Shown: one piece after another, positions 1 through 50,158 of the stretch
How positions within the stretch are numbered: position 1 is the stretch's first letter
How the letters are laid out: each line of letters starts with the position of its first letter
From: Dehalococcoidia bacterium
GTDB lineage: Bacteria; Chloroflexota; Dehalococcoidia; DSTF01; JACRBR01
Direction: 5' to 3'
Length of the DNA stretch: 64,000 nt
Assembly: GCA_038227375.1 (NCBI GenBank)
Contig: JBBRPY010000004.1
Span: 39,565-103,564 of the forward strand
Notes under the pieces: model-generated
Seen by the model: the letters and a program-made list of their open reading frames with translations, nothing else
Database searches by the model: none
Told to the model about the DNA's origin: nothing
Program-made: the position numbers and the translations under genes

Positions 1-756
<756 letters not shown>

Positions 757-782
757 TCTTAGTTCCTTGCTCAATGGGGAAT

Positions 783-806
783 GGAGACTAGAGATTGGAG
801 ATTGGG
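783..806 (+). repeat. heptanucleotide tandem array (GGAGACT AGAGATT GGAGATT GGG), left arm of cassette 1
   Basis: Period-7 repeat read directly from the sequence. It is complementary in composition to 1204-1235. Confidence 0.8.
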
Positions 807-838
807 TTCTCGGACTACGGTTGGCGAATTCGAGATCG

Positions 839-1188
839 CTAGTACTGGATCAGTCTCGTTAACTGCTTGCCAACTACTTCGTACTGCTCGATGAACTGCG
901 ATGCCTCCTCCTGCACAACGTAACCCGGCGCCGCGGCTGTTTTCAGATGGCCTTCCATTTCGTTTGAAGATCCGACTGAGATCGCGAGGAAGCTGCACAG
1001 CTCGCGGGGAGAACGTTGTCGGGCGTAGCCCTCCACGATGTTCGCAGCCACGGATTTGCAAGCGCGCCGCATCTGGCTGGCGAGATCATATTTCTCGTAA
1101 TCGGGAAACCCGAGGACCAACGAGTGGATTGGCTTCTGAAGGGCAACGCCCGTTTGTAGACTTCCAGATCTTCATAGCCGTGACCCAA
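839..1188 (-). pseudogene. four-helix-bundle protein (23S rRNA intervening-sequence protein / Avd-like family), disrupted by a 1-nt frameshift
   Basis: The N-terminus MGHGYEDLEVYKRALPF (ORF 943-1188, TTG start) continues in another frame as ..ALQKPIHSLVLGFPDYEKYDLASQMRRACKSVAANIVEGYARQ...SVGSSNEMEGHL (ORF 839-1120). It aligns with the intact paralog at 2315-2884. It could also be an assembly indel. Confidence 0.7.
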
Positions 1189-1203
1189 ATTCCGCTCGCG
1201 ATC

Positions 1204-1235
1204 CCCAGTCTCTCCAGTCTCTAATCTCTAATCTC
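1204..1235 (-). repeat. heptanucleotide tandem array (CCCAGTC TCTCCAG TCTCTAA TCTCTAA TCTC), right arm of cassette 1
   Basis: Period-7 repeat. It overlaps the stop codon (1228-1230) of the dehydrogenase at 1228-2409. Confidence 0.8.
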
Positions 1236-2409
1236 TTGGCAACCCCAACCCCCGCGTCGCGATGATGTTTCGCTGGATCTCCGACGTGCCGCCGGCAATC
1301 GTCGACGAGAGCGACGTCATGTAGCTGCTCTCGTAGCTCCCCTTCATCGGCGCCGCGTCGCCGTAGAGCTGGCCGTAGAGGCCCAGCACCTTCATGCCCG
1401 TGCGCGCGATCCGCTGGTTGAGCTCCGACGAGAAGAGCTTGGTCATCGAGGCCTCGTGGTTCGGGATCAGACCCTTCGCCTGCATCGTCACGACCCGGTA
1501 CGACATCATGCGCGAGACGTTCGCTTCGACGTAGCGGTCCGCCAGCTCGGTCCTGATCGACTGCATGTAGCCGCTCCGGCTAACGCCCGAGGCCTCCTGC
1601 TCCTTCGCGTACCTCACCAGCCGGTCGAGCTGCAGGCGAATGCCGACGGCGCTGCCGATGCTCGATCGCTCGAAGTCGAGCGTGGTGGTGCCGACGTACC
1701 AGCCGCGGTTCACCTCGCCCACGATGTTCTTCGCGGGCACGCGCACATCCTGGAAGAACACCTCGCTGAACATGTTCTGGTTCGCCAGATTGGTCAGCGG
1801 CCGCACCTCGACGCCCGGCGACTTCATGTCGAGCAGGAAGTAGCTGATGCCCTTGTGCTTCGGGGCATCAGCGTCGGTGCGCGCCATCATGAACATCCAA
1901 TGCGCGTACTGCGCGCCGGAGGTCCAGATCTTCTGGCCGTTGATTACGTAATCGTCGCCATCCTTCAGCGCGCGCGTCTGCAACGACGCGAGGTCCGAGC
2001 CCGAGCCTGGCTCGCTGAACCCCTGGCACCACTGCACATCGCCGGAGAGGATGCGGCTCAGGTGTTCCTTCTTCTGCTCCGGCGTGCCGTGCGTGATGAT
2101 CGTCGGGCCGACCATCGACACGCCCATGCCGCCGACCGGCGGCACGCGGTGCTCGGCGAACTCCTCATTCATGATGAACTGCTGCATAACGGAGAGGCTG
2201 GCGCCGCCGTACTCCTTCGGCCACGCCGGCGCGATCCACCCCTTGCCCGCCAGCTTCTCGCGCGTGTCCTTCAGGCGCTCGAAGGCGCCGCGATACATTC
2301 CGCGCTCAGCGAACTCACCGTCCTTCGCGCTCTGCGGCAGCTCCTTGTCGATGAACTCCCGCACCTCTGTGCGGAACGCTGCTTCGTCGGTGCTGTCTTT
2401 GAAATTCAT
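1228..2409 (-). CDS. acyl-CoA dehydrogenase family protein, paralog B
   Basis: 393-aa ORF with WIAPAWPKEYGGAS, CQGFSEPGSGSDLASLQTRALKDGDDYVINGQKIWTSGA and a C-terminal GGTSEIQRNIIA motif. AGGAGGA lies 7 nt upstream of the ATG. Confidence 0.93.
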   Translation of the reverse strand: MNFKDSTDEAAFRTEVREFIDKELPQSAKDGEFAERGMYRGAFERLKDTREKLAGKGWIAPAWPKEYGGASLSVMQQFIMNEEFAEHRVPPVGGMGVSMVGPTIITHGTPEQKKEHLSRILSGDVQWCQGFSEPGSGSDLASLQTRALKDGDDYVINGQKIWTSGAQYAHWMFMMARTDADAPKHKGISYFLLDMKSPGVEVRPLTNLANQNMFSEVFFQDVRVPAKNIVGEVNRGWYVGTTTLDFERSSIGSAVGIRLQLDRLVRYAKEQEASGVSRSGYMQSIRTELADRYVEANVSRMMSYRVVTMQAKGLIPNHEASMTKLFSSELNQRIARTGMKVLGLYGQLYGDAAPMKGSYESSYMTSLSSTIAGGTSEIQRNIIATRGLGLPRD

Positions 2410-2884
2410 GCGTCAGTTCCTCCTGGTCGTCGGTCGTCAGGGCGTCGTGCGCTGTCGTGTGATCGTCGGCATCGCGTGGGATCTTGGTGCGCCAGTGTTG
2501 CCACAATCGGAACACCTGCTTCGAGACGATCGCGTACTCGCTCTCAAACTGATCGTGCGTTGACTGAGAGAGGTATTCGAGCTCGCGCGCGACGTCGAGA
2601 TGCACCCGCACTTCGGTTGAAGAGCCGTAGGAGATACGCAGGTGCTTGCAGAACAATTTAGGCTCATCGCGAATGGCATACCCTTCCCCGATGTCCGCAG
2701 GAACGGACTTCGCCGCACGCCGAATCTGGCTGGCGAGATCAAACCGCTCGTAGTCCGGGAACGTCAGGACCAGCTCGTGGATCGGTTTCAGAAGGCCAAA
2801 CGCGCGCTTGTAGACGTCGAGATCCTTGTAGCCGAGTATCTCGATGATCTGCGCTGTCCCCGACGACCGGCGGCCGCCTACCAT
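2315..2884 (-). CDS. four-helix-bundle protein (23S rRNA intervening-sequence protein / Avd-like family)
   Basis: Contains YKDLDVYKRAFGLLKPIHELVLTFPDYERFDLASQIRRAAKSVPADIGEGY...SYGSSTEVRVHLDVAREL. The recognisable domain ends near 2490. The ORF then reads through the left repeat arm and overlaps the next gene by 95 nt, so the functional 3' end is uncertain. Confidence 0.75.
   Translation of the reverse strand: MVGGRRSSGTAQIIEILGYKDLDVYKRAFGLLKPIHELVLTFPDYERFDLASQIRRAAKSVPADIGEGYAIRDEPKLFCKHLRISYGSSTEVRVHLDVARELEYLSQSTHDQFESEYAIVSKQVFRLWQHWRTKIPRDADDHTTAHDALTTDDQEELTHEFQRQHRRSSVPHRGAGVHRQGAAAEREGR
2425..2447 (+). repeat. heptanucleotide array GGTCGTC x2 + AGGGCGTCG, left arm of cassette 2
   Basis: Read directly from the sequence. 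It abuts the Shine-Dalgarno site of the gene starting at 2409. Confidence 0.85.
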
Positions 2885-2958
2885 CCGTCCCCCACTTTAC
2901 TCAGAGCGAGCCACAGGTCCTCTACGGCGGCCGCTCCCGCTCGCATCGACAGCTGCTG

Positions 2959-2989
2959 CGACGTCCCTGACGACCGACGACCGACGACC
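2959..2989 (-). repeat. heptanucleotide array (CGACGTCCCT + GACGACC x3), right arm of cassette 2
   Basis: Reverse complement of the left arm plus one extra unit. It starts 10 nt downstream of the stop of the gene at 2999-4216. Confidence 0.85.
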
Positions 2990-2998
2990 ATCGTCCCC

Positions 2999-4216
2999 CT
3001 ATGCCCGCGGCATGCCCAGCCCCCGGCTCGCGATGATGTTCCGCTGGATTTCGCTCGTGCCGCCGCCGACAGTGCTGGTGGTAGCGTACAGGTAGGCGCT
3101 GGCGACGCGGCCGTTCGACGCCACGTACGGGCTCGCCTTCGTGAGCTGGCCGTAGGCGCCGAGCGTCCTCATCGCCGTCCCGGCGATCCGGATATCCAGT
3201 TCCGATGAGAAGAGCTTGGCGATCGACGACTCCTTGTTCGGCACGAGGCCGCGGTTCTGCATCGAGATCACCTGGTACGAGAGCATCGATTCGACCTCCG
3301 ACTCGATGGCGCGGTCGGCGATCTCGTGCCGCACCGCCTTCGCCTTCGAGATGAATCCCTGGCCGCGGTTGTCGCGCACGAATTTCGCGAGGTCGTTGAC
3401 CATCAGCCCGTGCGAGACGCTGGTGGCGATGCCGGAGCGCTCAAAATCGAGCGTGGTGGTGCCGACGTACCAGCCGCGGTTCTCCTCGCCGATCAGGTTG
3501 TCCTTGGGTACGCGCACGTTGTCGAAGAAGACCTCATTGAAGTCGTGGTTGTTCGCCATGTTCACTAACGGACGGACCGTGATCCCCGGCGACTTCATAT
3601 CGAGGATGAAGTAGCTGATGCCCTTGTGCTTCGACGCATCGGGGTCGGTGCGCGCAAGCAGGATCATGTAGTGCGCGACGTGCGCGCCCGAGGTCCAGAT
3701 CTTCTGCCCGTTTATGACGTAGTCGTCGCCGTCCTTCGTTGCGCGCGTCTGGATCGATGCGAGGTCCGACCCCGCGCCCGGCTCGCTGAAACCTTGGCAC
3801 CAGACGGCATCGCCCTTGACGATCGAAGGCAGGTACTTGCTCTTCTGCTCCTCGCTGCCATAGAGGATGATCGTCGGGCCGGCCCAGCCGGTCCCGATGC
3901 CGAAGTTGCCGCCCTTCGGAGCGCCGACGCGCGCCATCTCCTCGTTGAAGATGAACTGCTCCATCACGGTCATACCTGCGCCGCCGTACTCTTTCGGCCA
4001 GGCCGGGGCGATCCACCCCTTGACGGCGAGCTTCCGCACCCACGTGGCATTGGTCTTGCGATAGTCCTCCGGCGACATGCTGGTGTCGTCCCAGCCGCCA
4101 CCGCCGAACATGGCGCCGAAGCCCCTCCGCTTGATGCCGGGCGGGCACTCCGTCTCGATGAACGCGCGGACCTCGGCGCGAAATGCGGCCTCGGTGGATG
4201 TGTCGTGAAAATCCAT
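2999..4216 (-). CDS. acyl-CoA dehydrogenase family protein, paralog C
   Basis: 405-aa ORF with the same motifs as the two paralogs: WIAPAWPKEYGGAG, CQGFSEPGAGSDLASIQTRATKDGDDYVINGQKIWTSGA, GGTSEIQRNIIA. Confidence 0.93.
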   Translation of the reverse strand: MDFHDTSTEAAFRAEVRAFIETECPPGIKRRGFGAMFGGGGWDDTSMSPEDYRKTNATWVRKLAVKGWIAPAWPKEYGGAGMTVMEQFIFNEEMARVGAPKGGNFGIGTGWAGPTIILYGSEEQKSKYLPSIVKGDAVWCQGFSEPGAGSDLASIQTRATKDGDDYVINGQKIWTSGAHVAHYMILLARTDPDASKHKGISYFILDMKSPGITVRPLVNMANNHDFNEVFFDNVRVPKDNLIGEENRGWYVGTTTLDFERSGIATSVSHGLMVNDLAKFVRDNRGQGFISKAKAVRHEIADRAIESEVESMLSYQVISMQNRGLVPNKESSIAKLFSSELDIRIAGTAMRTLGAYGQLTKASPYVASNGRVASAYLYATTSTVGGGTSEIQRNIIASRGLGMPRA

Positions 4217-4320: not shown

Positions 4321-4992
4321 TCATATCGCGCCCGCTGGTTCCCGCATCGGCTTCGCCTCGGGGTTGATGTAGCGCGGTCGCCCGCCCGGCTCCGCGCGTA
4401 CGGCATTCAGGTACACCCGCCCCCAGAGGTCGGCCCGCGCGCGGTCCATCTCGTCCTTCAGTCCCAGCATGTGCATCATGTCGAGCGTCATGCCGATGCC
4501 GAGGAACTGCCAGGCGACGAGCCGTGTGTTCACCTCCGCGCGGACGATGCCGCGCGCCTTGCCCTCGTCGAGCGTGTCGGCGACGAAGTCCACGAACGCC
4601 TCAAAATTGTCGCGAAGGGCGCCGCGGATGTCGGCGTCATCGACCTCGGACAGCGCGCGAAACTGCAGCTTCATGTTTGTCGCGTGGGATTCGAGGTGGT
4701 CGTAGTAGTAGACGCCGATCGCCCAGAGCGTCTCCATCGGGTCTTCGTAATCGACCGAGATCTCTTCCCAGATCTTCAGCAGGCGGGGCCCGGTCGCGCG
4801 AATCGCGGCGACGAAGAGCTCCTTTTTTCCTGAGAAGTGGCGGTAGAGCGCGGGTTCAGAAATGCCAGCCGCTTTCGCCAGGTCGGCGGTCCCGACGTGC
4901 GCATAGCTCTGCGACGCGAAGACATCGCGCGCGCTCTCGATGATCTGGCGCCTGCGCTTGGCCGCGGGAAGCCGTGCCGCTCTCTGGTGCAT
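4321..4992 (-). CDS. TetR/AcrR family transcriptional regulator
   Basis: N-terminal HTH region RRRQIIESARDVFASQSYAHVGTADLAKAAGISEPALYRHFSGKKELF. The ATG at 4992 is preferred over the GTG at 5028, which lies inside a palindrome. Confidence 0.85.
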   Translation of the reverse strand: MHQRAARLPAAKRRRQIIESARDVFASQSYAHVGTADLAKAAGISEPALYRHFSGKKELFVAAIRATGPRLLKIWEEISVDYEDPMETLWAIGVYYYDHLESHATNMKLQFRALSEVDDADIRGALRDNFEAFVDFVADTLDEGKARGIVRAEVNTRLVAWQFLGIGMTLDMMHMLGLKDEMDRARADLWGRVYLNAVRAEPGGRPRYINPEAKPMREPAGAI

Positions 4993-5011
4993 TACGTCCG
5001 CTCCGGAATGA

Positions 5012-5029
5012 AGTGAGTGAGCACTCACT
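5012..5029. promoter_or_regulatory. candidate TetR operator (8-bp inverted repeat AGTGAGTG-AG-CACTCACT)
   Basis: A perfect 8+8 palindrome lies 20 nt upstream of the tetR ATG. Its size and position are typical for autoregulated TetR genes. This is inference. Confidence 0.4.
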
Positions 5030-6860: not shown

Positions 6861-7988
6861 TTATCCCGCGAAGTCCATCACGCAGTGCACGGTGACGCCG
6901 TCGGCGGGTGCGAAGAAGCAGCGGCCTCCAGCGCGGCGATACGCCGGGCTGAGGATCTCCTCGCGGTGGGCAGGGCTGTTCATCCACGCCTGCACCAGCG
7001 CGTCGGCCGACCAACCCTGCGTCCCCCAGGCCAAAATCTCGCCCAGCTGCACGGTGAAAGGGAACCCCGCCGCCTCGATCCGCGACACGAACGTGCTGCC
7101 GTCCGGACCGGTATGCGAGAACCAGCGGTTGTCGGAAAGCACCTTCGCGTAGCCGCTGGCGGCGTCGAGCAACCTGTTCTCGGCGATCACCGGCGCCAGT
7201 CCGGCCCGCACGCGCTCCTGGTTCACGAGGTCGCGGACCCGGCCGCTGTACACATCGTCATACCAACCGGCGGCAGACGTTACCGGCGGCGCCGGAGCGG
7301 GTGGCGGCGGTGGGGGCGACGGAGGTGGTGGAGGTGGTGGCGGGGCCGGCGGCGCCTGGGTGAGCGCCACGACTGGGGCAGCCGGTTCCGGAGGGGCCAG
7401 CGGCGGCGGCCCGGCCTGCTGCTGCGGCGCGCCAGGCAGCGCGCCCGCCGCGGCGAGCGCCTGCGCCGACTGCAGGATCTCGAGCAGCGACGGCTGCGTC
7501 GGCTGCGGGAGCGCGCCTGCCTTCGCGAGGGCGTCTGCCGCTCGCAGGATGTCGATCAGCGGCGGCTGGCTGGACGGCGCTTGCGGCGGCAACGCACCGG
7601 CCTTCGCGAGCGCGTCTGCCGCTCGCAGGATGTCGATCAGCGGCGGCTGGTTGGACGGCGCTTGCGGCGGCAACGCACCGGCCTTCACAAGCGCGTCGGC
7701 CGCCCGCAGGATGTCGATTAGCGGCGGCTGGCCGGACGGCGCTTGCGGCGGCAACGCGCCGGCCTTCGCGAGCGCATCTGCCGCTCGCAGGATCTCGATC
7801 AGCGGCGGATGCTCCGCGCTCATGGGCGCGGTGGGCTGGGCGAGATCGCCCGTGCGATCGGTTGCTTCTCCACCGCCGGAATCGGCGTGATAGGCGTAGG
7901 CAAGCCCGGCAGCCGCGGCGATCAGCGTGATCGCACCGGCGACAGCGGCGAGCATCTGCCAGCGGCCGGACGTGTGGCGTTCCTGCAT
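6861..7988 (-). CDS. membrane-anchored CAP/SCP (YkwD-like) domain protein with tandem 27-aa repeats and a poly-proline linker
   Basis: N-terminal TM segment LAAVAGAITLIAAAAGLAYAY. Four to five copies of PPLIDILRAADALAKAGALPPQAPS.Q, then a [15 protein letters not shown] linker. The C-terminal CAP-like region reads VNQERVRAGLAPV...NRWFSHTGPDGSTF...AWMNSPAHREEIL. Confidence 0.8.
   Translation of the reverse strand: MQERHTSGRWQMLAAVAGAITLIAAAAGLAYAYHADSGGGEATDRTGDLAQPTAPMSAEHPPLIEILRAADALAKAGALPPQAPSGQPPLIDILRAADALVKAGALPPQAPSNQPPLIDILRAADALAKAGALPPQAPSSQPPLIDILRAADALAKAGALPQPTQPSLLEILQSAQALAAAGALPGAPQQQAGPPPLAPPEPAAPVVALTQAPPAPPPPPPPPSPPPPPPAPAPPVTSAAGWYDDVYSGRVRDLVNQERVRAGLAPVIAENRLLDAASGYAKVLSDNRWFSHTGPDGSTFVSRIEAAGFPFTVQLGEILAWGTQGWSADALVQAWMNSPAHREEILSPAYRRAGGRCFFAPADGVTVHCVMDFAG
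7410..7808. repeat. 81-bp in-frame tandem repeat (4 good copies + 1 degenerate) inside the CAP-domain gene
   Basis: The marker TTGCGGCGGC recurs at 7581, 7662 and 7743, giving a period of 81 nt (27 aa). Confidence 0.9.
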
Positions 7989-19756: not shown

Positions 19757-19782
19757 ACGGGGATCGTAGCACACGGTGGGCT

Positions 19783-19818
19783 GGATGTTGGAGGTTAGAT
19801 GTTGGATGTTGGAGGGTG
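19783..19818 (+). repeat. heptanucleotide tandem array GGATGTT GGAGGTT AGATGTT GGATGTT GGAGGGT
   Basis: Period-7 repeat read directly from the sequence. No inverted partner is seen nearby. Confidence 0.8.
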
Positions 19819-20556: not shown

Positions 20557-20600
20557 GAAGTAGCTCCTGCAAGGCGATAGCGGCGACGGTCCGGTACGGC

Positions 20601-20635
20601 CTATAACCTATCACCTCCACCCTATAACCTCACCC
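20601..20635 (-). repeat. heptanucleotide tandem array CTATAAC CTATCAC CTCCACC CTATAAC CTCACCC
   Basis: Period-7 repeat ending 1 nt before the ATG at 20637. One of its units supplies a TATAAC -10-like hexamer. Confidence 0.75.
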
Positions 20636-20636
20636 C

Positions 20637-21758
20637 ATGGACATCGAAGCCGCGATCGTGGGTGGTGGCGCCGTCGGGTTGGCCGTAGCCGCCGAGCTCT
20701 CGCGCACGCGGCAGGTCGCCGTCATCGAGCGCCACGCCGGCTTCGGGCTGGAGACCAGCTCGCACAACAGCGGCGTCGTGCATGCCGGGATCTACTATCG
20801 CACCGGGTCCCTCAAGCACACACTCTGCCTGGAGGGCAACCGGCTGCTCTACGAGTGGTCGGCCGCGAACGGCGTGCGGACGCATCGCGGCGGCAAGCTG
20901 ATCATCGCCGTCGATGCCGGCGAGCTCGATGCGCTCGACGCGGTCGCGCGGCAGGCCGAAGCGAACGGCGTGCCCGAACTGCGCACGATCCGTGATGAGG
21001 CAGAGCTTCGCGCGCTGGAGCCGGCGGTGCGCTGCGTGGAGGCGCTCTGGTCGGGGTCGACGGGCGTCGTCGACCAATCGATGCTGATGGCGTCATACGC
21101 CGCGGCGGCGCAGGCGAACGGCGCCTGGATCGCCCTCAAGCACGCGCTGATCGCTGTCGAGCCGAAGGAGGGTGGATGCGCACTCACGCTGGCGGGGCCG
21201 GACGGCGACGAGACCACCGTGACCACGGAGCTATTGGTGAACTGCGCGGGCCTCGGTGCACCGGACGTGGCAGCGATGCTTGGATACCCGCTCGACGGAG
21301 ACGCCCGCACTCCCGTGCTCCGCCAGCGCGTGAACAAGGGGCGGTACTACGACATCGTTGCGCCGGAGAAGGCGCGCGCCCTGCGGCACCTCATCTATCC
21401 GGTGCCCGAGCACGCGAAGGGGGGCCTCGGCGTGCATGTCACGCTCGACATCGACGGCGGCGCCCACCTCGGGCCTGACACCGAGTGGCTCGATGAGGGC
21501 GCGCCGCTGGACTATCGCGCCGACGATCTACGGCGCGCCGACTTCCTCGCGGCGGCGCGGCGCTACCTGCCGTTTCTCGAGCTGGAGGACCTGGCGCCGG
21601 GGCAGGTCGGCTACCGGCCGAAGCTCCAGGCGCCGGGCGCCGAGCAAGCCGACTTCCTCATCTGGCGCGACGGCGCATACGTGCACCTCGGCGGCATCGA
21701 GTCGCCCGGCCTCACCGCCAGCCTCGCCATCGCGCGGCACGTCGCGGCGCTGCTGTGA
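20637..21758 (+). CDS. FAD-dependent oxidoreductase (L-2-hydroxyglutarate oxidase LhgO-like)
   Basis: Contains AIVGGGAVGLAVAAEL...ETSSHNSGVVHAGIYYRTGSLKHTLCLEGN; 373 aa. Confidence 0.75.
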   Translation: MDIEAAIVGGGAVGLAVAAELSRTRQVAVIERHAGFGLETSSHNSGVVHAGIYYRTGSLKHTLCLEGNRLLYEWSAANGVRTHRGGKLIIAVDAGELDALDAVARQAEANGVPELRTIRDEAELRALEPAVRCVEALWSGSTGVVDQSMLMASYAAAAQANGAWIALKHALIAVEPKEGGCALTLAGPDGDETTVTTELLVNCAGLGAPDVAAMLGYPLDGDARTPVLRQRVNKGRYYDIVAPEKARALRHLIYPVPEHAKGGLGVHVTLDIDGGAHLGPDTEWLDEGAPLDYRADDLRRADFLAAARRYLPFLELEDLAPGQVGYRPKLQAPGAEQADFLIWRDGAYVHLGGIESPGLTASLAIARHVAALL

Positions 21759-43969: not shown

Positions 43970-44614
43970 ATGCATGATCCCGAGCCGCCGAGAGTGTCGC
44001 TTCTGGAACGGCCGATCGCGCGCGCCGCCATCGCCGCCGTCATCCTCGCGATCCTCGCGCTCGGCGTCGTTGCCCTCAACGCCACCAGAGGAGGCAGCGC
44101 GAAGCCGCAGGCGACGGCCGGCGAGCCGGAGGCGCCGCTGCGGGCGGCGACCACCGACGAAGCCGGCATCGGCCCGATCGGCGACAGCGCGCCGATCATC
44201 AACCGGCCCGCGCCCGACTTCGCGCTTCGCAGCAGCGACGGCAAGGTCATTCGGCTGAGCGACCTCCGCGGCAGCGTCGTCTGGGTGAACTTCTGGGCGA
44301 GCTGGTGTGTCCCCTGCAAGAAGGAACTGCCCGACATCCAGAAACTGTACGACGAGAAGCACGCCGCCGGCCTGGAAGTCCTCGCCGTGAACTATCAGGA
44401 GGACGCCGCCACCGCCAGCGGCTTCTTCTCCACCCGCTCGTTGACGCTGCCGCTGCTCCTCGACACGAGCGGGTCGGTGTACAACGCCTATCGCCTGCAG
44501 GGGCTGCCCGACAGCTTCTTCGTCGACCGCGACGGCAACGTATCGGGGCTGCAATTCGGGTTCCTGACGGAAGCAAAGATGCGCGAGCGTCTCGCTGCCG
44601 CGGGCCTGCCGTGA
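43970..44614 (+). CDS. TlpA/ResA-like thiol-disulfide oxidoreductase (membrane-anchored thioredoxin fold)
   Basis: TM anchor AAIAAVILAILALGVVAL and active site VWVNFWASWCVPCKKELP. The start is taken at ATG 43970. Confidence 0.82.
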   Translation: MHDPEPPRVSLLERPIARAAIAAVILAILALGVVALNATRGGSAKPQATAGEPEAPLRAATTDEAGIGPIGDSAPIINRPAPDFALRSSDGKVIRLSDLRGSVVWVNFWASWCVPCKKELPDIQKLYDEKHAAGLEVLAVNYQEDAATASGFFSTRSLTLPLLLDTSGSVYNAYRLQGLPDSFFVDRDGNVSGLQFGFLTEAKMRERLAAAGLP

Positions 44615-44622
44615 TTAGTCGC

Positions 44623-44664
44623 TGGTCATCGGTGAATGGCGATTTGGTGATTGGTGACTGGTTG
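44623..44664 (+). repeat. heptanucleotide tandem array TGGTCAT CGGTGAA TGGCGAT TTGGTGA TTGGTGA CTGGTTG
   Basis: Begins 9 nt after the stop at 44614. Same unit and orientation as 45168-45212. Confidence 0.8.
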
Positions 44665-44810
44665 CCGGGACGCCGCGAGAGCATCCCTTCGGATGTTCGT
44701 TGAGCAGTCGCAGCGCGCCATCGGGATCGTTGGTAACATCCAAGGCGCATGGCCACGGCGCGCAGCTCCCCTTGTCGAAACAACGGGGCTCATCACCAAA
44801 GAGAGGCAGC

Positions 44811-45164: not shown

Positions 45165-45167
45165 ATG

Positions 45168-45212
45168 TCTGGTCAGTTGGTGATTGGTGTCTCGTGATTG
45201 TTCGGTTCGTTG
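45168..45212 (+). repeat. heptanucleotide tandem array (TGGTCAG TTGGTGA TTGGTGT CTCGTGA TTGTTCG GTTCGTT)
   Basis: Begins 4 nt after the cupin stop. Confidence 0.8.
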
Positions 45213-45675: not shown

Positions 45676-45760
45676 GGGCGCCGGATTCGATCCGCATCAT
45701 CGCCGCGTACCCAACACTCGGACGCGTTGGGTGGCGACGGCTCTCGGCACGAACCGACCG

Positions 45761-45799
45761 CAAACAGCAGACGGCAAACAGCAAACAGTGAACATCAAC
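45761..45799 (-). repeat. heptanucleotide tandem array CAAACAG CAGACGG CAAACAG CAAACAG TGAACAT
   Basis: Period-7 repeat read directly from the sequence. It has no partner. Confidence 0.75.
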
Positions 45800-49927: not shown

Positions 49928-49942
49928 CCGGTTCGGGGTGGT

Positions 49943-50002
49943 GGTCGGTCGTCGGTCGTCGGTCGTCGGTCGTCGGTCGTCGGTCGTCGGTCGTCGGTCG
50001 TC
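49943..50002 (+). repeat. GGTCGTC x8 perfect heptanucleotide tandem array
   Basis: Units counted directly over 49947-50002, plus a partial unit at 49943-49946. Starts 16 nt after the stop at 49927. Confidence 0.95.
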
Positions 50003-50105
50003 GGGGATAGTACGTCCGCTCGACGCGGCAATCGCTGCGATGCCAGCGCGCGCGGCCCGATCGAAAGACGAACGGCGCAACGTTTAGGCATCGATGGAGG
50101 AGTGT

Positions 50106-50154
50106 CCCCCGACGACCGCCGACCGACGACCGAGGACAGACGACCCGACGAACC
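50106..50154 (-). repeat. imperfect GACGACC array (inverted partner of 49943-50002)
   Basis: CCCCC GACGACC GCCGACC GACGACC GAGGACA GACGACC CGACGAA CC. Ends 5 nt before the stop codon at 50159-50161 of the minus-strand gene. Confidence 0.85.
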
Positions 50155-50158
50155 GCCC

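Follow-up and report, generated by a model that had tools for sequence, protein, structure and literature searches.

The DNA analysed here is a stretch of 64,000 nucleotides from a Dehalococcoidia bacterium, referred to throughout as the window. At its start lies a co-directional row of minus-strand genes and gene cassettes in the order TetR-like gene, ACAD3, cassette 2, ACAD2, cassette 1, ACAD1. Our subject is cassette 1 (window 783–1236), a probable four-helix-bundle (4HB) pseudogene held between two inverted arrays of heptamers, and it is considered together with cassette 2 (window 2424–2999), which has the same design. The cassette fills the spacer exactly from the stop codon to the next Shine–Dalgarno sequence and has the sense orientation of the operon. 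Three acyl-CoA dehydrogenase (ACAD) domains were found in each of ACAD1, ACAD2 and ACAD3, whose mutual identity is 56–59%. The gene strand has no promoter-like or terminator-like site between the three ACAD genes, and a single polycistronic transcript running from ACAD3 through cassette 2, ACAD2 and cassette 1 to ACAD1 would therefore be the simplest reading. The G+C content of the cassettes is 0.48–0.60 versus 0.62–0.69 in the flanks. Rfam returned no family, and no rRNA, in window 600–3200, PADLOC gave no match to a defence system, and an exact-sequence look-up of ACAD2 returned no record.

The left arm of cassette 1 (783–806) is GGAGACTAGAGATTGGAGATTGGG and the right arm (1204–1235) is CCCAGTCTCTCCAGTCTCTAATCTCTAATCTC, the complete array on the right covering 1203–1236. 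A preliminary description made from the sequence alone had given both strings and had noted that the heptamer TCTCTAA of the right arm is the reverse complement of a rotation of AGAGATT; all of this was exact on re-reading. The arms are complementary at 83–86% over 22–23 nt (784–805 with 1214–1235 in the repeat search, 22 nt, 86%), and Tandem Repeats Finder (TRF) reported period-7 arrays at 782–805 and 1218–1236. Of 3000 pairs of 60-nt boxes with equal spacing, taken from the rest of the window, one equalled the inverted-repeat score of cassette 1; the score of cassette 2 was reached by none of 3000. Folded as RNA, each cassette was closed by its own arms in both the minimum free energy (MFE) and the centroid structures.

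On the gene strand the right arm is the 5′ arm, and the overlap with the stop codon of the upstream dehydrogenase that had been pointed out earlier is real, since 1228–1230 lie inside the arm. The arm covers the last codons of ACAD2 together with the stop (AGA GAT TAG, 1228–1236), which correspond to one heptamer unit; in orthologs the gene ends in CGG GAC TAG or CGC GAT TAG. It seems that the array has extended into the end of the ACAD2 coding sequence and recoded it synonymously.

The cargo of cassette 1 matches PF05635 (E = 2.5e-21) and TIGR02436 (E = 9e-23). The only other copy of these families in the window is the cargo of cassette 2 (2e-26 and 1e-23, respectively), and the two proteins are 56% identical. 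The cargo had been described as a paralog of the 2315–2884 product split over two frames, and the frames are as described. The lesions were placed by alignment to an intact ortholog at the ACAD2/ACAD1 junction of a metagenomic contig (L081), which encodes a protein 78% identical to the cargo and has the same GGAGACT/AGAGATT arm unit. The frameshift is a 1-nt deletion (gene strand TTT in L081, TT here) at 1145–1146, within the interval 1145–1155 in which an indel had been suspected. Two further changes were absent from the earlier list. The start codon is TTG (1186–1188), where L081 has ATG, and a premature TAG at 839–841 (TGG to TAG) replaces the near-invariant Trp of the C-terminal LIQ(Y/F)WRS motif. 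A lone homopolymer error could be an artefact. With a nonsense codon at a conserved residue on top of the frameshift, a genuine pseudogene is therefore the better reading of the sequence than a sequence error.

The layout of cassette 2, together with the identity of the two 4HB proteins, bears out the earlier view of two cassettes of shared architecture with homologous cargo, each at an ACAD–ACAD junction. An 18-nt stretch of its outer 5′ arm is perfectly complementary to 2425–2442; the extended pairing reaches about 30 bp, and weaker pairing of the 3′ arm continues out to about 2460. The open reading frame (ORF) has no stop codon before the 3′ arm, through which it reads to overlap ACAD2 by 95 nt in another frame; orthologs of this cassette (for example L001) stop at the 3′ arm. 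The 5′ arm with the start codon is duplicated at a distance of about 83–107 nt in two unrelated cassettes, cassette 2 of the window and that of L022/L024, and in both the outer copy pairs almost perfectly with the 3′ arm while the inner copy is diverged. The features are collected in Table 1.

Table 1. Positions of genes, cassette arms and cargo in the window (minus-strand features in gene order)
Feature	Position	Strand	Remarks
TetR-like gene	4321–5028	−	Upstream of ACAD3
ACAD3, acyl-CoA dehydrogenase	2999–4216	−	Upstream of cassette 2; stop 2999–3001
Cassette 2, outer 5′ arm	2956–2999	−	ATGGTCGTC GGTCGTC GGTCGTC AGGG...; begins 7 nt past the ACAD3 stop (2999–3001)
Cassette 2, inner 5′ arm duplicate and start codon	2849–2892	−	Diverged, 77% identical to 2956–2999; holds ATG 2882–2884
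Cassette 2, cargo ORF	2315–2884	−	Intact 4HB domain, aa 20–130, about 2495–2830
Cassette 2, 3′ arm	2424–2442	−	Gene strand CCCTGACGACCGACGACCA; then GGAGGAAC and ACAD2 ATG (2407–2409)
ACAD2, acyl-CoA dehydrogenase	1228–2409	−	Between both cassettes; ATG 2407–2409, stop 1228–1230
Cassette 1, 5′ arm	1203–1236	−	Gene strand AGAGATT AGAGATT AGAGACT GGAGAGACT GGGG
Cassette 1, cargo, probable 4HB pseudogene	842–1188	−	PF05635/TIGR02436
Cassette 1, 3′ arm	783–806	−	Gene strand CCC AATCTCC AATCTCT AGTCTCC; then Shine–Dalgarno and ACAD1 ATG (754–756)
ACAD1	1–756	−	N-terminal 252 aa, continues past the window edge; downstream of cassette 1; ATG 754–756
ORF-less inverted pair	49938–50155	+	(GGTCGTC)x9-GGGG, about 100 nt, CCCCC-(GACGACC)n; unit as in cassette 2

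The design was surveyed in 78 loci encoding 4HB relatives, taken from one-genome-per-species contigs of Chloroflexota, candidate phyla radiation (CPR) groups, Syntrophomonadaceae and other Firmicutes, Alphaproteobacteria, Bacteroidota and others. A local inverted-repeat score and the lag-7 self-identity were calculated over 160 nt on each side of the 4HB gene, with other positions in the same loci as controls. Neighbouring genes were taken from called genes, since six-frame ORFs proved noisy in high-GC loci. The best inverted-repeat score of the flanks had a median of 19 versus 8 in the controls; it lay above the 95th percentile of the controls in 87% of the loci and above the control maximum in 53%. 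Self-identity was 0.75 at lag 7 versus 0.45–0.49 at lags 5, 6, 8 and 9, and 0.47 in the controls. As both measures exceed the controls, enclosure of the 4HB gene by inverted heptamer arrays is a rule for the family and not special to the window. Cassettes and controls could not be told apart by RNA duplex energy over 140-nt flanks, since GC-rich DNA gives duplexes along the whole length. The arm unit of L128 (537–973) has 8 nt rather than 7 (CCAACGTA / GGTACGTT), so the period is not absolutely fixed.

Rfam placed the cassette inside the 23S rRNA gene in ten loci, the position of the classical intervening sequence (IVS), inside the 16S rRNA gene in one (L071, 4001–4375; the match spans 1960 nt, the model 1533 nt) and, in one (L064, 4001–4348), in the ribosomal spacer with tRNA-Ile and tRNA-Ala on either side. 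Other cassettes lie within unrelated operons, in tight spacers (15–81 nt in these loci) that separate co-directional genes, with settings such as Pyr_redox/4HB/amine oxidase, EutA-B-C/4HB and TetR-ACAD/4HB/ACAD-ACAD. Orientation was sense with respect to the host transcript in 22 of 22 cassettes from ACAD-operon loci, in both window cassettes and in all rRNA-embedded copies. Cassettes on Nostoc plasmids have the same arm design, an example being L137 (GGTGTGG GGTGTGG GGTGTAG ... CCTACACC CTACACC). This locus, on Nostoc punctiforme plasmid pNPUN01, has one more G-rich heptamer array within the annotated 4HB ORF, in its 3′ part (about 985–1020), and a further C-rich array about 150 nt downstream of the cassette. 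In L023, L030 and L044 a 4HB cassette stands alone on a tiny contig (500–627 nt) of an isolate assembly, that of L023 being an rRNA IVS; such isolation is expected when the assembly of short reads fails at a repeat.

A metagenome scan with ACAD2 yielded 56 loci, about 20 of which have an ACAD2 81–91% identical to that of the window and the same ACAD3-ACAD2-ACAD1 order. The ACAD3/ACAD2 junction carries an HB2-type cassette in the window and in L001/L002, HB1-type cassettes with other arm units in L080, L087, L090 and L128, short hairpins in some loci and a bare spacer of 15–22 nt in L089, L093 and L120. The ACAD2/ACAD1 junction carries the GGAGACT/AGAGATT cassette in the window and in L081, HB1-type cassettes with GCTGGTC or GGTGATT arms in L091, L105, L127 and L130, HB2-type cassettes in L085 and L095, ORF-less hairpins consisting of the arms only in L090 (6-nt loop), L115, L100 and L080, and a plain spacer of 26–34 nt in L086, L089 and L114. 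The comparison shows a decay series from full cassette through ORF-less stem-loop to nothing, in which cassette 1 is an early stage. If the reading proposed below is correct, these natural alleles of a single junction (filled, hairpin-only, empty) could serve to study how the element moves. No target-site duplication was visible on comparing filled with empty junctions, and no transposase, recombinase or reverse transcriptase is linked to the cassette among the neighbours in the window or in the related loci. With arms that differ between lineages, this upholds the earlier statement that the arms are not fixed terminal repeats of the insertion sequence type.

The 5′ arm is always purine-rich on the sense strand (A.27, C.12, G.39, T.23). 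Seventy-two clearly periodic arms were phased; they hold a median of 4.6 units (interquartile range 4–5) and give the degenerate consensus R-G-A-N-G-Y-Y, with G at position 2 in 82%. The arms of the two window cassettes had been called unrelated in sequence. This does not hold, because the window units AGAGATT and GGTCGTC both fit the family-wide R-G-A/T-N-G/A-Y-Y and are, by sequence, variants of one theme. Pairing is nevertheless specific to each cassette, as had been supposed: matched arms scored a median of 19, whereas the 5′ arm of one locus with the 3′ arm of another scored 8, which is background-like. The suggestion that arms are generated locally is contradicted by their inheritance. 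Similar arms were found in 47–73% of cassette pairs with proteins more than 65% identical and in 0–1% of pairs below 55%, and L081 keeps the unit of cassette 1; the arms are inherited together with the 4HB gene and evolve slowly. Among 22 related pairs, 9% of the aligned arm sites were different versus 24–60% of third codon positions of the enclosed gene (136 differences versus about 642 expected), a contrast that shows selection on the arms, though the local alignment of repeats flatters the similarity in these figures.

Strong purifying selection acts on the intact 4HB proteins (dN/dS about 0.1 or lower). The AlphaFold2 (AF2) model of the 4HB protein has a predicted local distance difference test (pLDDT) score of 88, and the folds that match it best are those of 2GSC and 2RLD, each with five chains, followed by Avd, a protein of diversity-generating retroelements (DGRs; 4DWL/8UB7). 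An identity as a HEPN-like RNase was considered and dropped, the alignment being without an Rx4-6H motif and the top fold matches without a HEPN structure.

We read the interval 783–1236, with a probability of about 0.6, as a decaying IVS-type element: a gene of the S23p / PF05635 / TIGR02436 4HB family (pentameric, with an Avd-like fold) between inverted arrays of about 4–5 purine-rich heptamers, whose arms would pair in the transcript and allow RNase III to cut the cassette out. This identity, missed in the preliminary description, is proposed because the same layout occurs in 87% of the 78 4HB loci, including the copies in 23S and 16S rRNA and in the tRNA spacer. Intervening sequences with an S23p ORF are known in 23S rRNA genes of Leptospira, Coxiella, Brucella and Xanthomonas (PMC4990558). 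In that of Coxiella the S23p ORF is under decay, a 28-bp stem of terminal inverted repeats is cut mid-stem by RNase III, and tandem GACAGAT heptamers vary in number between strains (PMC4990558). The window cassettes share with such elements the ORF family (S23p / 23S_rRNA_IVP, PF05635, TIGR02436), the complementary termini that close a long stem, 5′ tandem heptamers of variable number, a G+C content below that of the host, a sporadic distribution among close relatives and an ORF that tends to decay while the RNA part stays. They differ in lying in spacers of an ACAD operon and not in an rRNA gene (helix 9, 25 or 45 of 23S), and the arm of cassette 1 overlaps a host stop codon.

The proposed course of events is as follows. 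The ACAD operon would be transcribed as one RNA, in which the two arms would pair into a stem of about 22–35 bp (two or more helical turns) closing the cassette; by analogy with the rRNA elements, a stem of this length is compatible with RNase III excision. RNase III would cut the stem as in rRNA IVSs, releasing the 4HB RNA and separating the flanking cistrons. If the flanking RNAs stay functional after removal of the cassette, its insertion would be tolerated, and removal by RNase III would thus explain why rRNA, tRNA spacers and intercistronic positions alike tolerate the element. Formation of the stem would also limit translation of the 4HB gene, because the ribosome-binding region lies in or beside the 5′ arm (median distance about 20 nt). 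After death of the ORF, the stem would persist as an ORF-less intercistronic hairpin.

Several observations weigh against this account. RNase III cleavage at this cassette is proposed by analogy only. The stem of cassette 1 is AU-rich, and its duplex energy is unexceptional against the GC-rich background (173 of 1000 controls were as low); the z-scores of the whole-cassette folds are modest (−2.9 and −1.45). Heptamer arrays of the window also occur without a 4HB gene, once in direct orientation. Finally, an asymmetry between G.U and A.C mismatches was used as the test for a helix in sense-strand RNA, and the arms showed no excess of G.U over A.C, with 154 versus 155 overall and 121 versus 137 outside rRNA; only the rRNA-embedded subset leans to G.U (33 versus 18 A.C). 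Symmetric mismatches would be expected from copying or correction at the DNA level, not from long-term selection on a sense-strand RNA helix.

The same symmetry is the first argument for an alternative in which the arms work as DNA. The cassette would then be a non-autonomous or 4HB-driven mobile element whose arrays form hairpins or cruciforms in single-stranded DNA, with a recombinase or the 4HB pentamer recognising them; complementarity would be kept by template-switch (‘quasipalindrome’) correction and slippage, and RNA processing would be incidental. The insertions are polymorphic, with different lineages at one junction, which fits such an element. Moreover, the array recodes the last ACAD2 codons synonymously (AGA GAT TAG versus CGG GAC TAG in relatives), duplications of the 5′ arm recur with the outer copy keeping the pairing, and the copy number of the arm units varies between orthologs. 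Because of these features and the symmetric mismatches, we suggest that the likeness of the two arms is maintained by slippage and template-switch correction at the DNA level and that the arms may also act as DNA. As a complete explanation this alternative is nevertheless unlikely, although it retains an appreciable share of the probability. It lacks a linked transposase or recombinase and a target-site duplication, the 4HB fold has to our knowledge no catalytic activity, and the strictly sense orientation with fixed polarity (G-rich arm 5′) argues for a constraint at the transcript level. It is compatible with the IVS-type account on the tolerance of insertion and differs from it on the purpose of the arms.

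Rather less probable is a domesticated host module, in which the stems would be intercistronic signals of RNA processing or stability, similar to repetitive extragenic palindromic (REP) sequences, that set the expression ratios of the ACAD paralogs, with the 4HB protein as a host regulator. The exact placement from stop codon to Shine–Dalgarno sequence, the conserved arms, the persistence of ORF-less hairpins at the same junctions and the purifying selection on the protein would all suit such a role. A host function of this kind is difficult to reconcile with the presence of the same cassette in rRNA, tRNA spacers and unrelated operons across phyla, with the empty 15–35 nt spacers in close relatives that have the same operon, and with the replacement of one 4HB lineage by another at a single junction.

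That the gene is an orphan Avd accessory gene of a DGR is very improbable: the fold and family are common to Avd (PMC10053308), but the neighbours here are ACAD genes with an upstream TetR gene, no reverse transcriptase is adjacent here or in related loci, and the closest structures, 2GSC and 2RLD, are non-DGR proteins. The preliminary description had named, as its own possible refutation, that the ACAD-plus-cassette units arose by simple tandem duplication and that their arms diverged by slippage. The roughly equal divergence of the ACAD paralogs (56–59% identical) and of the two 4HB genes would fit this, but it is excluded by the turnover at orthologous junctions, where operons differ in occupancy and in 4HB lineage (HB1-type at ACAD3/ACAD2 in L080, HB2-type at ACAD2/ACAD1 in L085 and L095), and chance repeats are excluded by the survey and the in-window controls, so that hardly any weight is left to either.

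Within the IVS-type reading, the role of the protein is a matter of conjecture. Our working guess is that the 4HB pentamer binds the repeat arms of its own element. A more speculative extension, to which we give little credence, is that the 4HB gene and its inverted heptamer arms form a self-recognising mobile element embedded in transcripts and devoid of a transposase. The toroidal pentamer would bind its own 4–5 heptamers as RNA or single-stranded DNA, protein and unit would co-evolve, and binding would drive maintenance or spread, possibly via an RNA intermediate, as Avd acts with a reverse transcriptase. The excess of heptamer repeats in bacteria (GGGAATC pairs of Xanthomonas, the short tandemly repeated repetitive (STRR) sequences of cyanobacteria, the ORF-less hairpins described here) would then be the footprint of the family. 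The likeness to Avd of DGRs (PDB 4DWL, 8UB7) extends to the pentameric four-helix-bundle fold and to PF05635, which also picks up Avd-like proteins; unlike Avd genes, the cassettes have no adjacent reverse transcriptase or target gene and, within the scope of a search for local repeats, no adjacent template repeat, and in sequence they are much closer to 2GSC and 2RLD.

STRR repeats of cyanobacteria are among the heptameric repeats of bacterial genomes. Heptameric simple sequence repeats (SSRs) are over-represented as GGGAATC in Xanthomonas (70–75 convergent inverted pairs) and as GGGGA(C/T)T in Nostoc, where they were tied to no gene and discussed as formers of G-quadruplexes (PMC4692102). 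They resemble the window arrays as intergenic G-rich tandem 7-nt units, mostly about four, often in convergent inverted pairs and variable in length between relatives, and they are transcribed, which we count as a further likeness. The difference is that the arrays described here form both arms of a gene cassette, as they do on Nostoc plasmids too, and are GG-rich and not GGG-rich. REP sequences, bacterial interspersed mosaic elements (BIMEs) and miniature transposable elements with inverted repeats (MITEs) likewise are short intergenic inverted repeats inside operons with ORF-less copies and polymorphic presence. The cassettes differ from these in their tandem heptamer arms, which vary between lineages, and in having no conserved terminal sequence, REP-associated tyrosine transposase (RAYT), other transposase or target-site duplication.

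For 30 years, IVSs that carry an S23p ORF have been regarded as a curiosity of rRNA genes. A literature search gave no description of non-rRNA 4HB cassettes with heptamer arms, its coverage being incomplete, novelty not proven and curated family notes perhaps saying more. What is new is the context, a known IVS-type element in the spacer of an mRNA operon, and the regularity across the family may have been under-appreciated. If the reading is correct, IVSs are a general class of transcript-embedded cassettes that occupy spacers of mRNA operons, tRNA spacers and both 16S and 23S rRNA, and a concrete candidate explanation for the over-represented heptameric tandem repeats of bacteria would be available. 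The cassette is spread across Chloroflexota, Firmicutes, Proteobacteria, Cyanobacteria, Bacteroidota and CPR bacteria. For annotation, IVS-type cassettes would account for fragments labelled ‘four helix bundle protein’ that carry frameshifts, and for unusual extensions of 4HB proteins at either terminus; in homologs of the cassette 2 gene, the arms are translated by gene callers as tails such as MVVGRQS... and ...DDDS.

Further heptamer arrays were found in the window. The ORF-less inverted pair of Table 1, which lies between convergent genes and begins 10 nt past a stop codon, forms a single long hairpin when folded (−146 kcal/mol, z −6.4) and is a late stage of the decay series. At 19,780–19,816 a G-rich array (GGATGTT/GGAGGTT x4.6, ending in GGAGGG) and at 20,600–20,637 a C-rich array (CCTATAACC...) flank a minus-strand YajQ-like ORF, and their complementarity is only partial. 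Among the arrays at 44,614–44,665, 45,166–45,205 and 45,756–45,790, those of the GGTGATT type immediately follow two stop codons and, in direct and not inverted orientation, surround an ORF of about 117 aa, while a GCAAACA x4 array lies farther along; in this genome, then, such arrays are not restricted to 4HB genes. An 81-nt tandem repeat at 7505–7808 (3.8 copies, 90% matches, TRF score 503) is unrelated to the cassettes.

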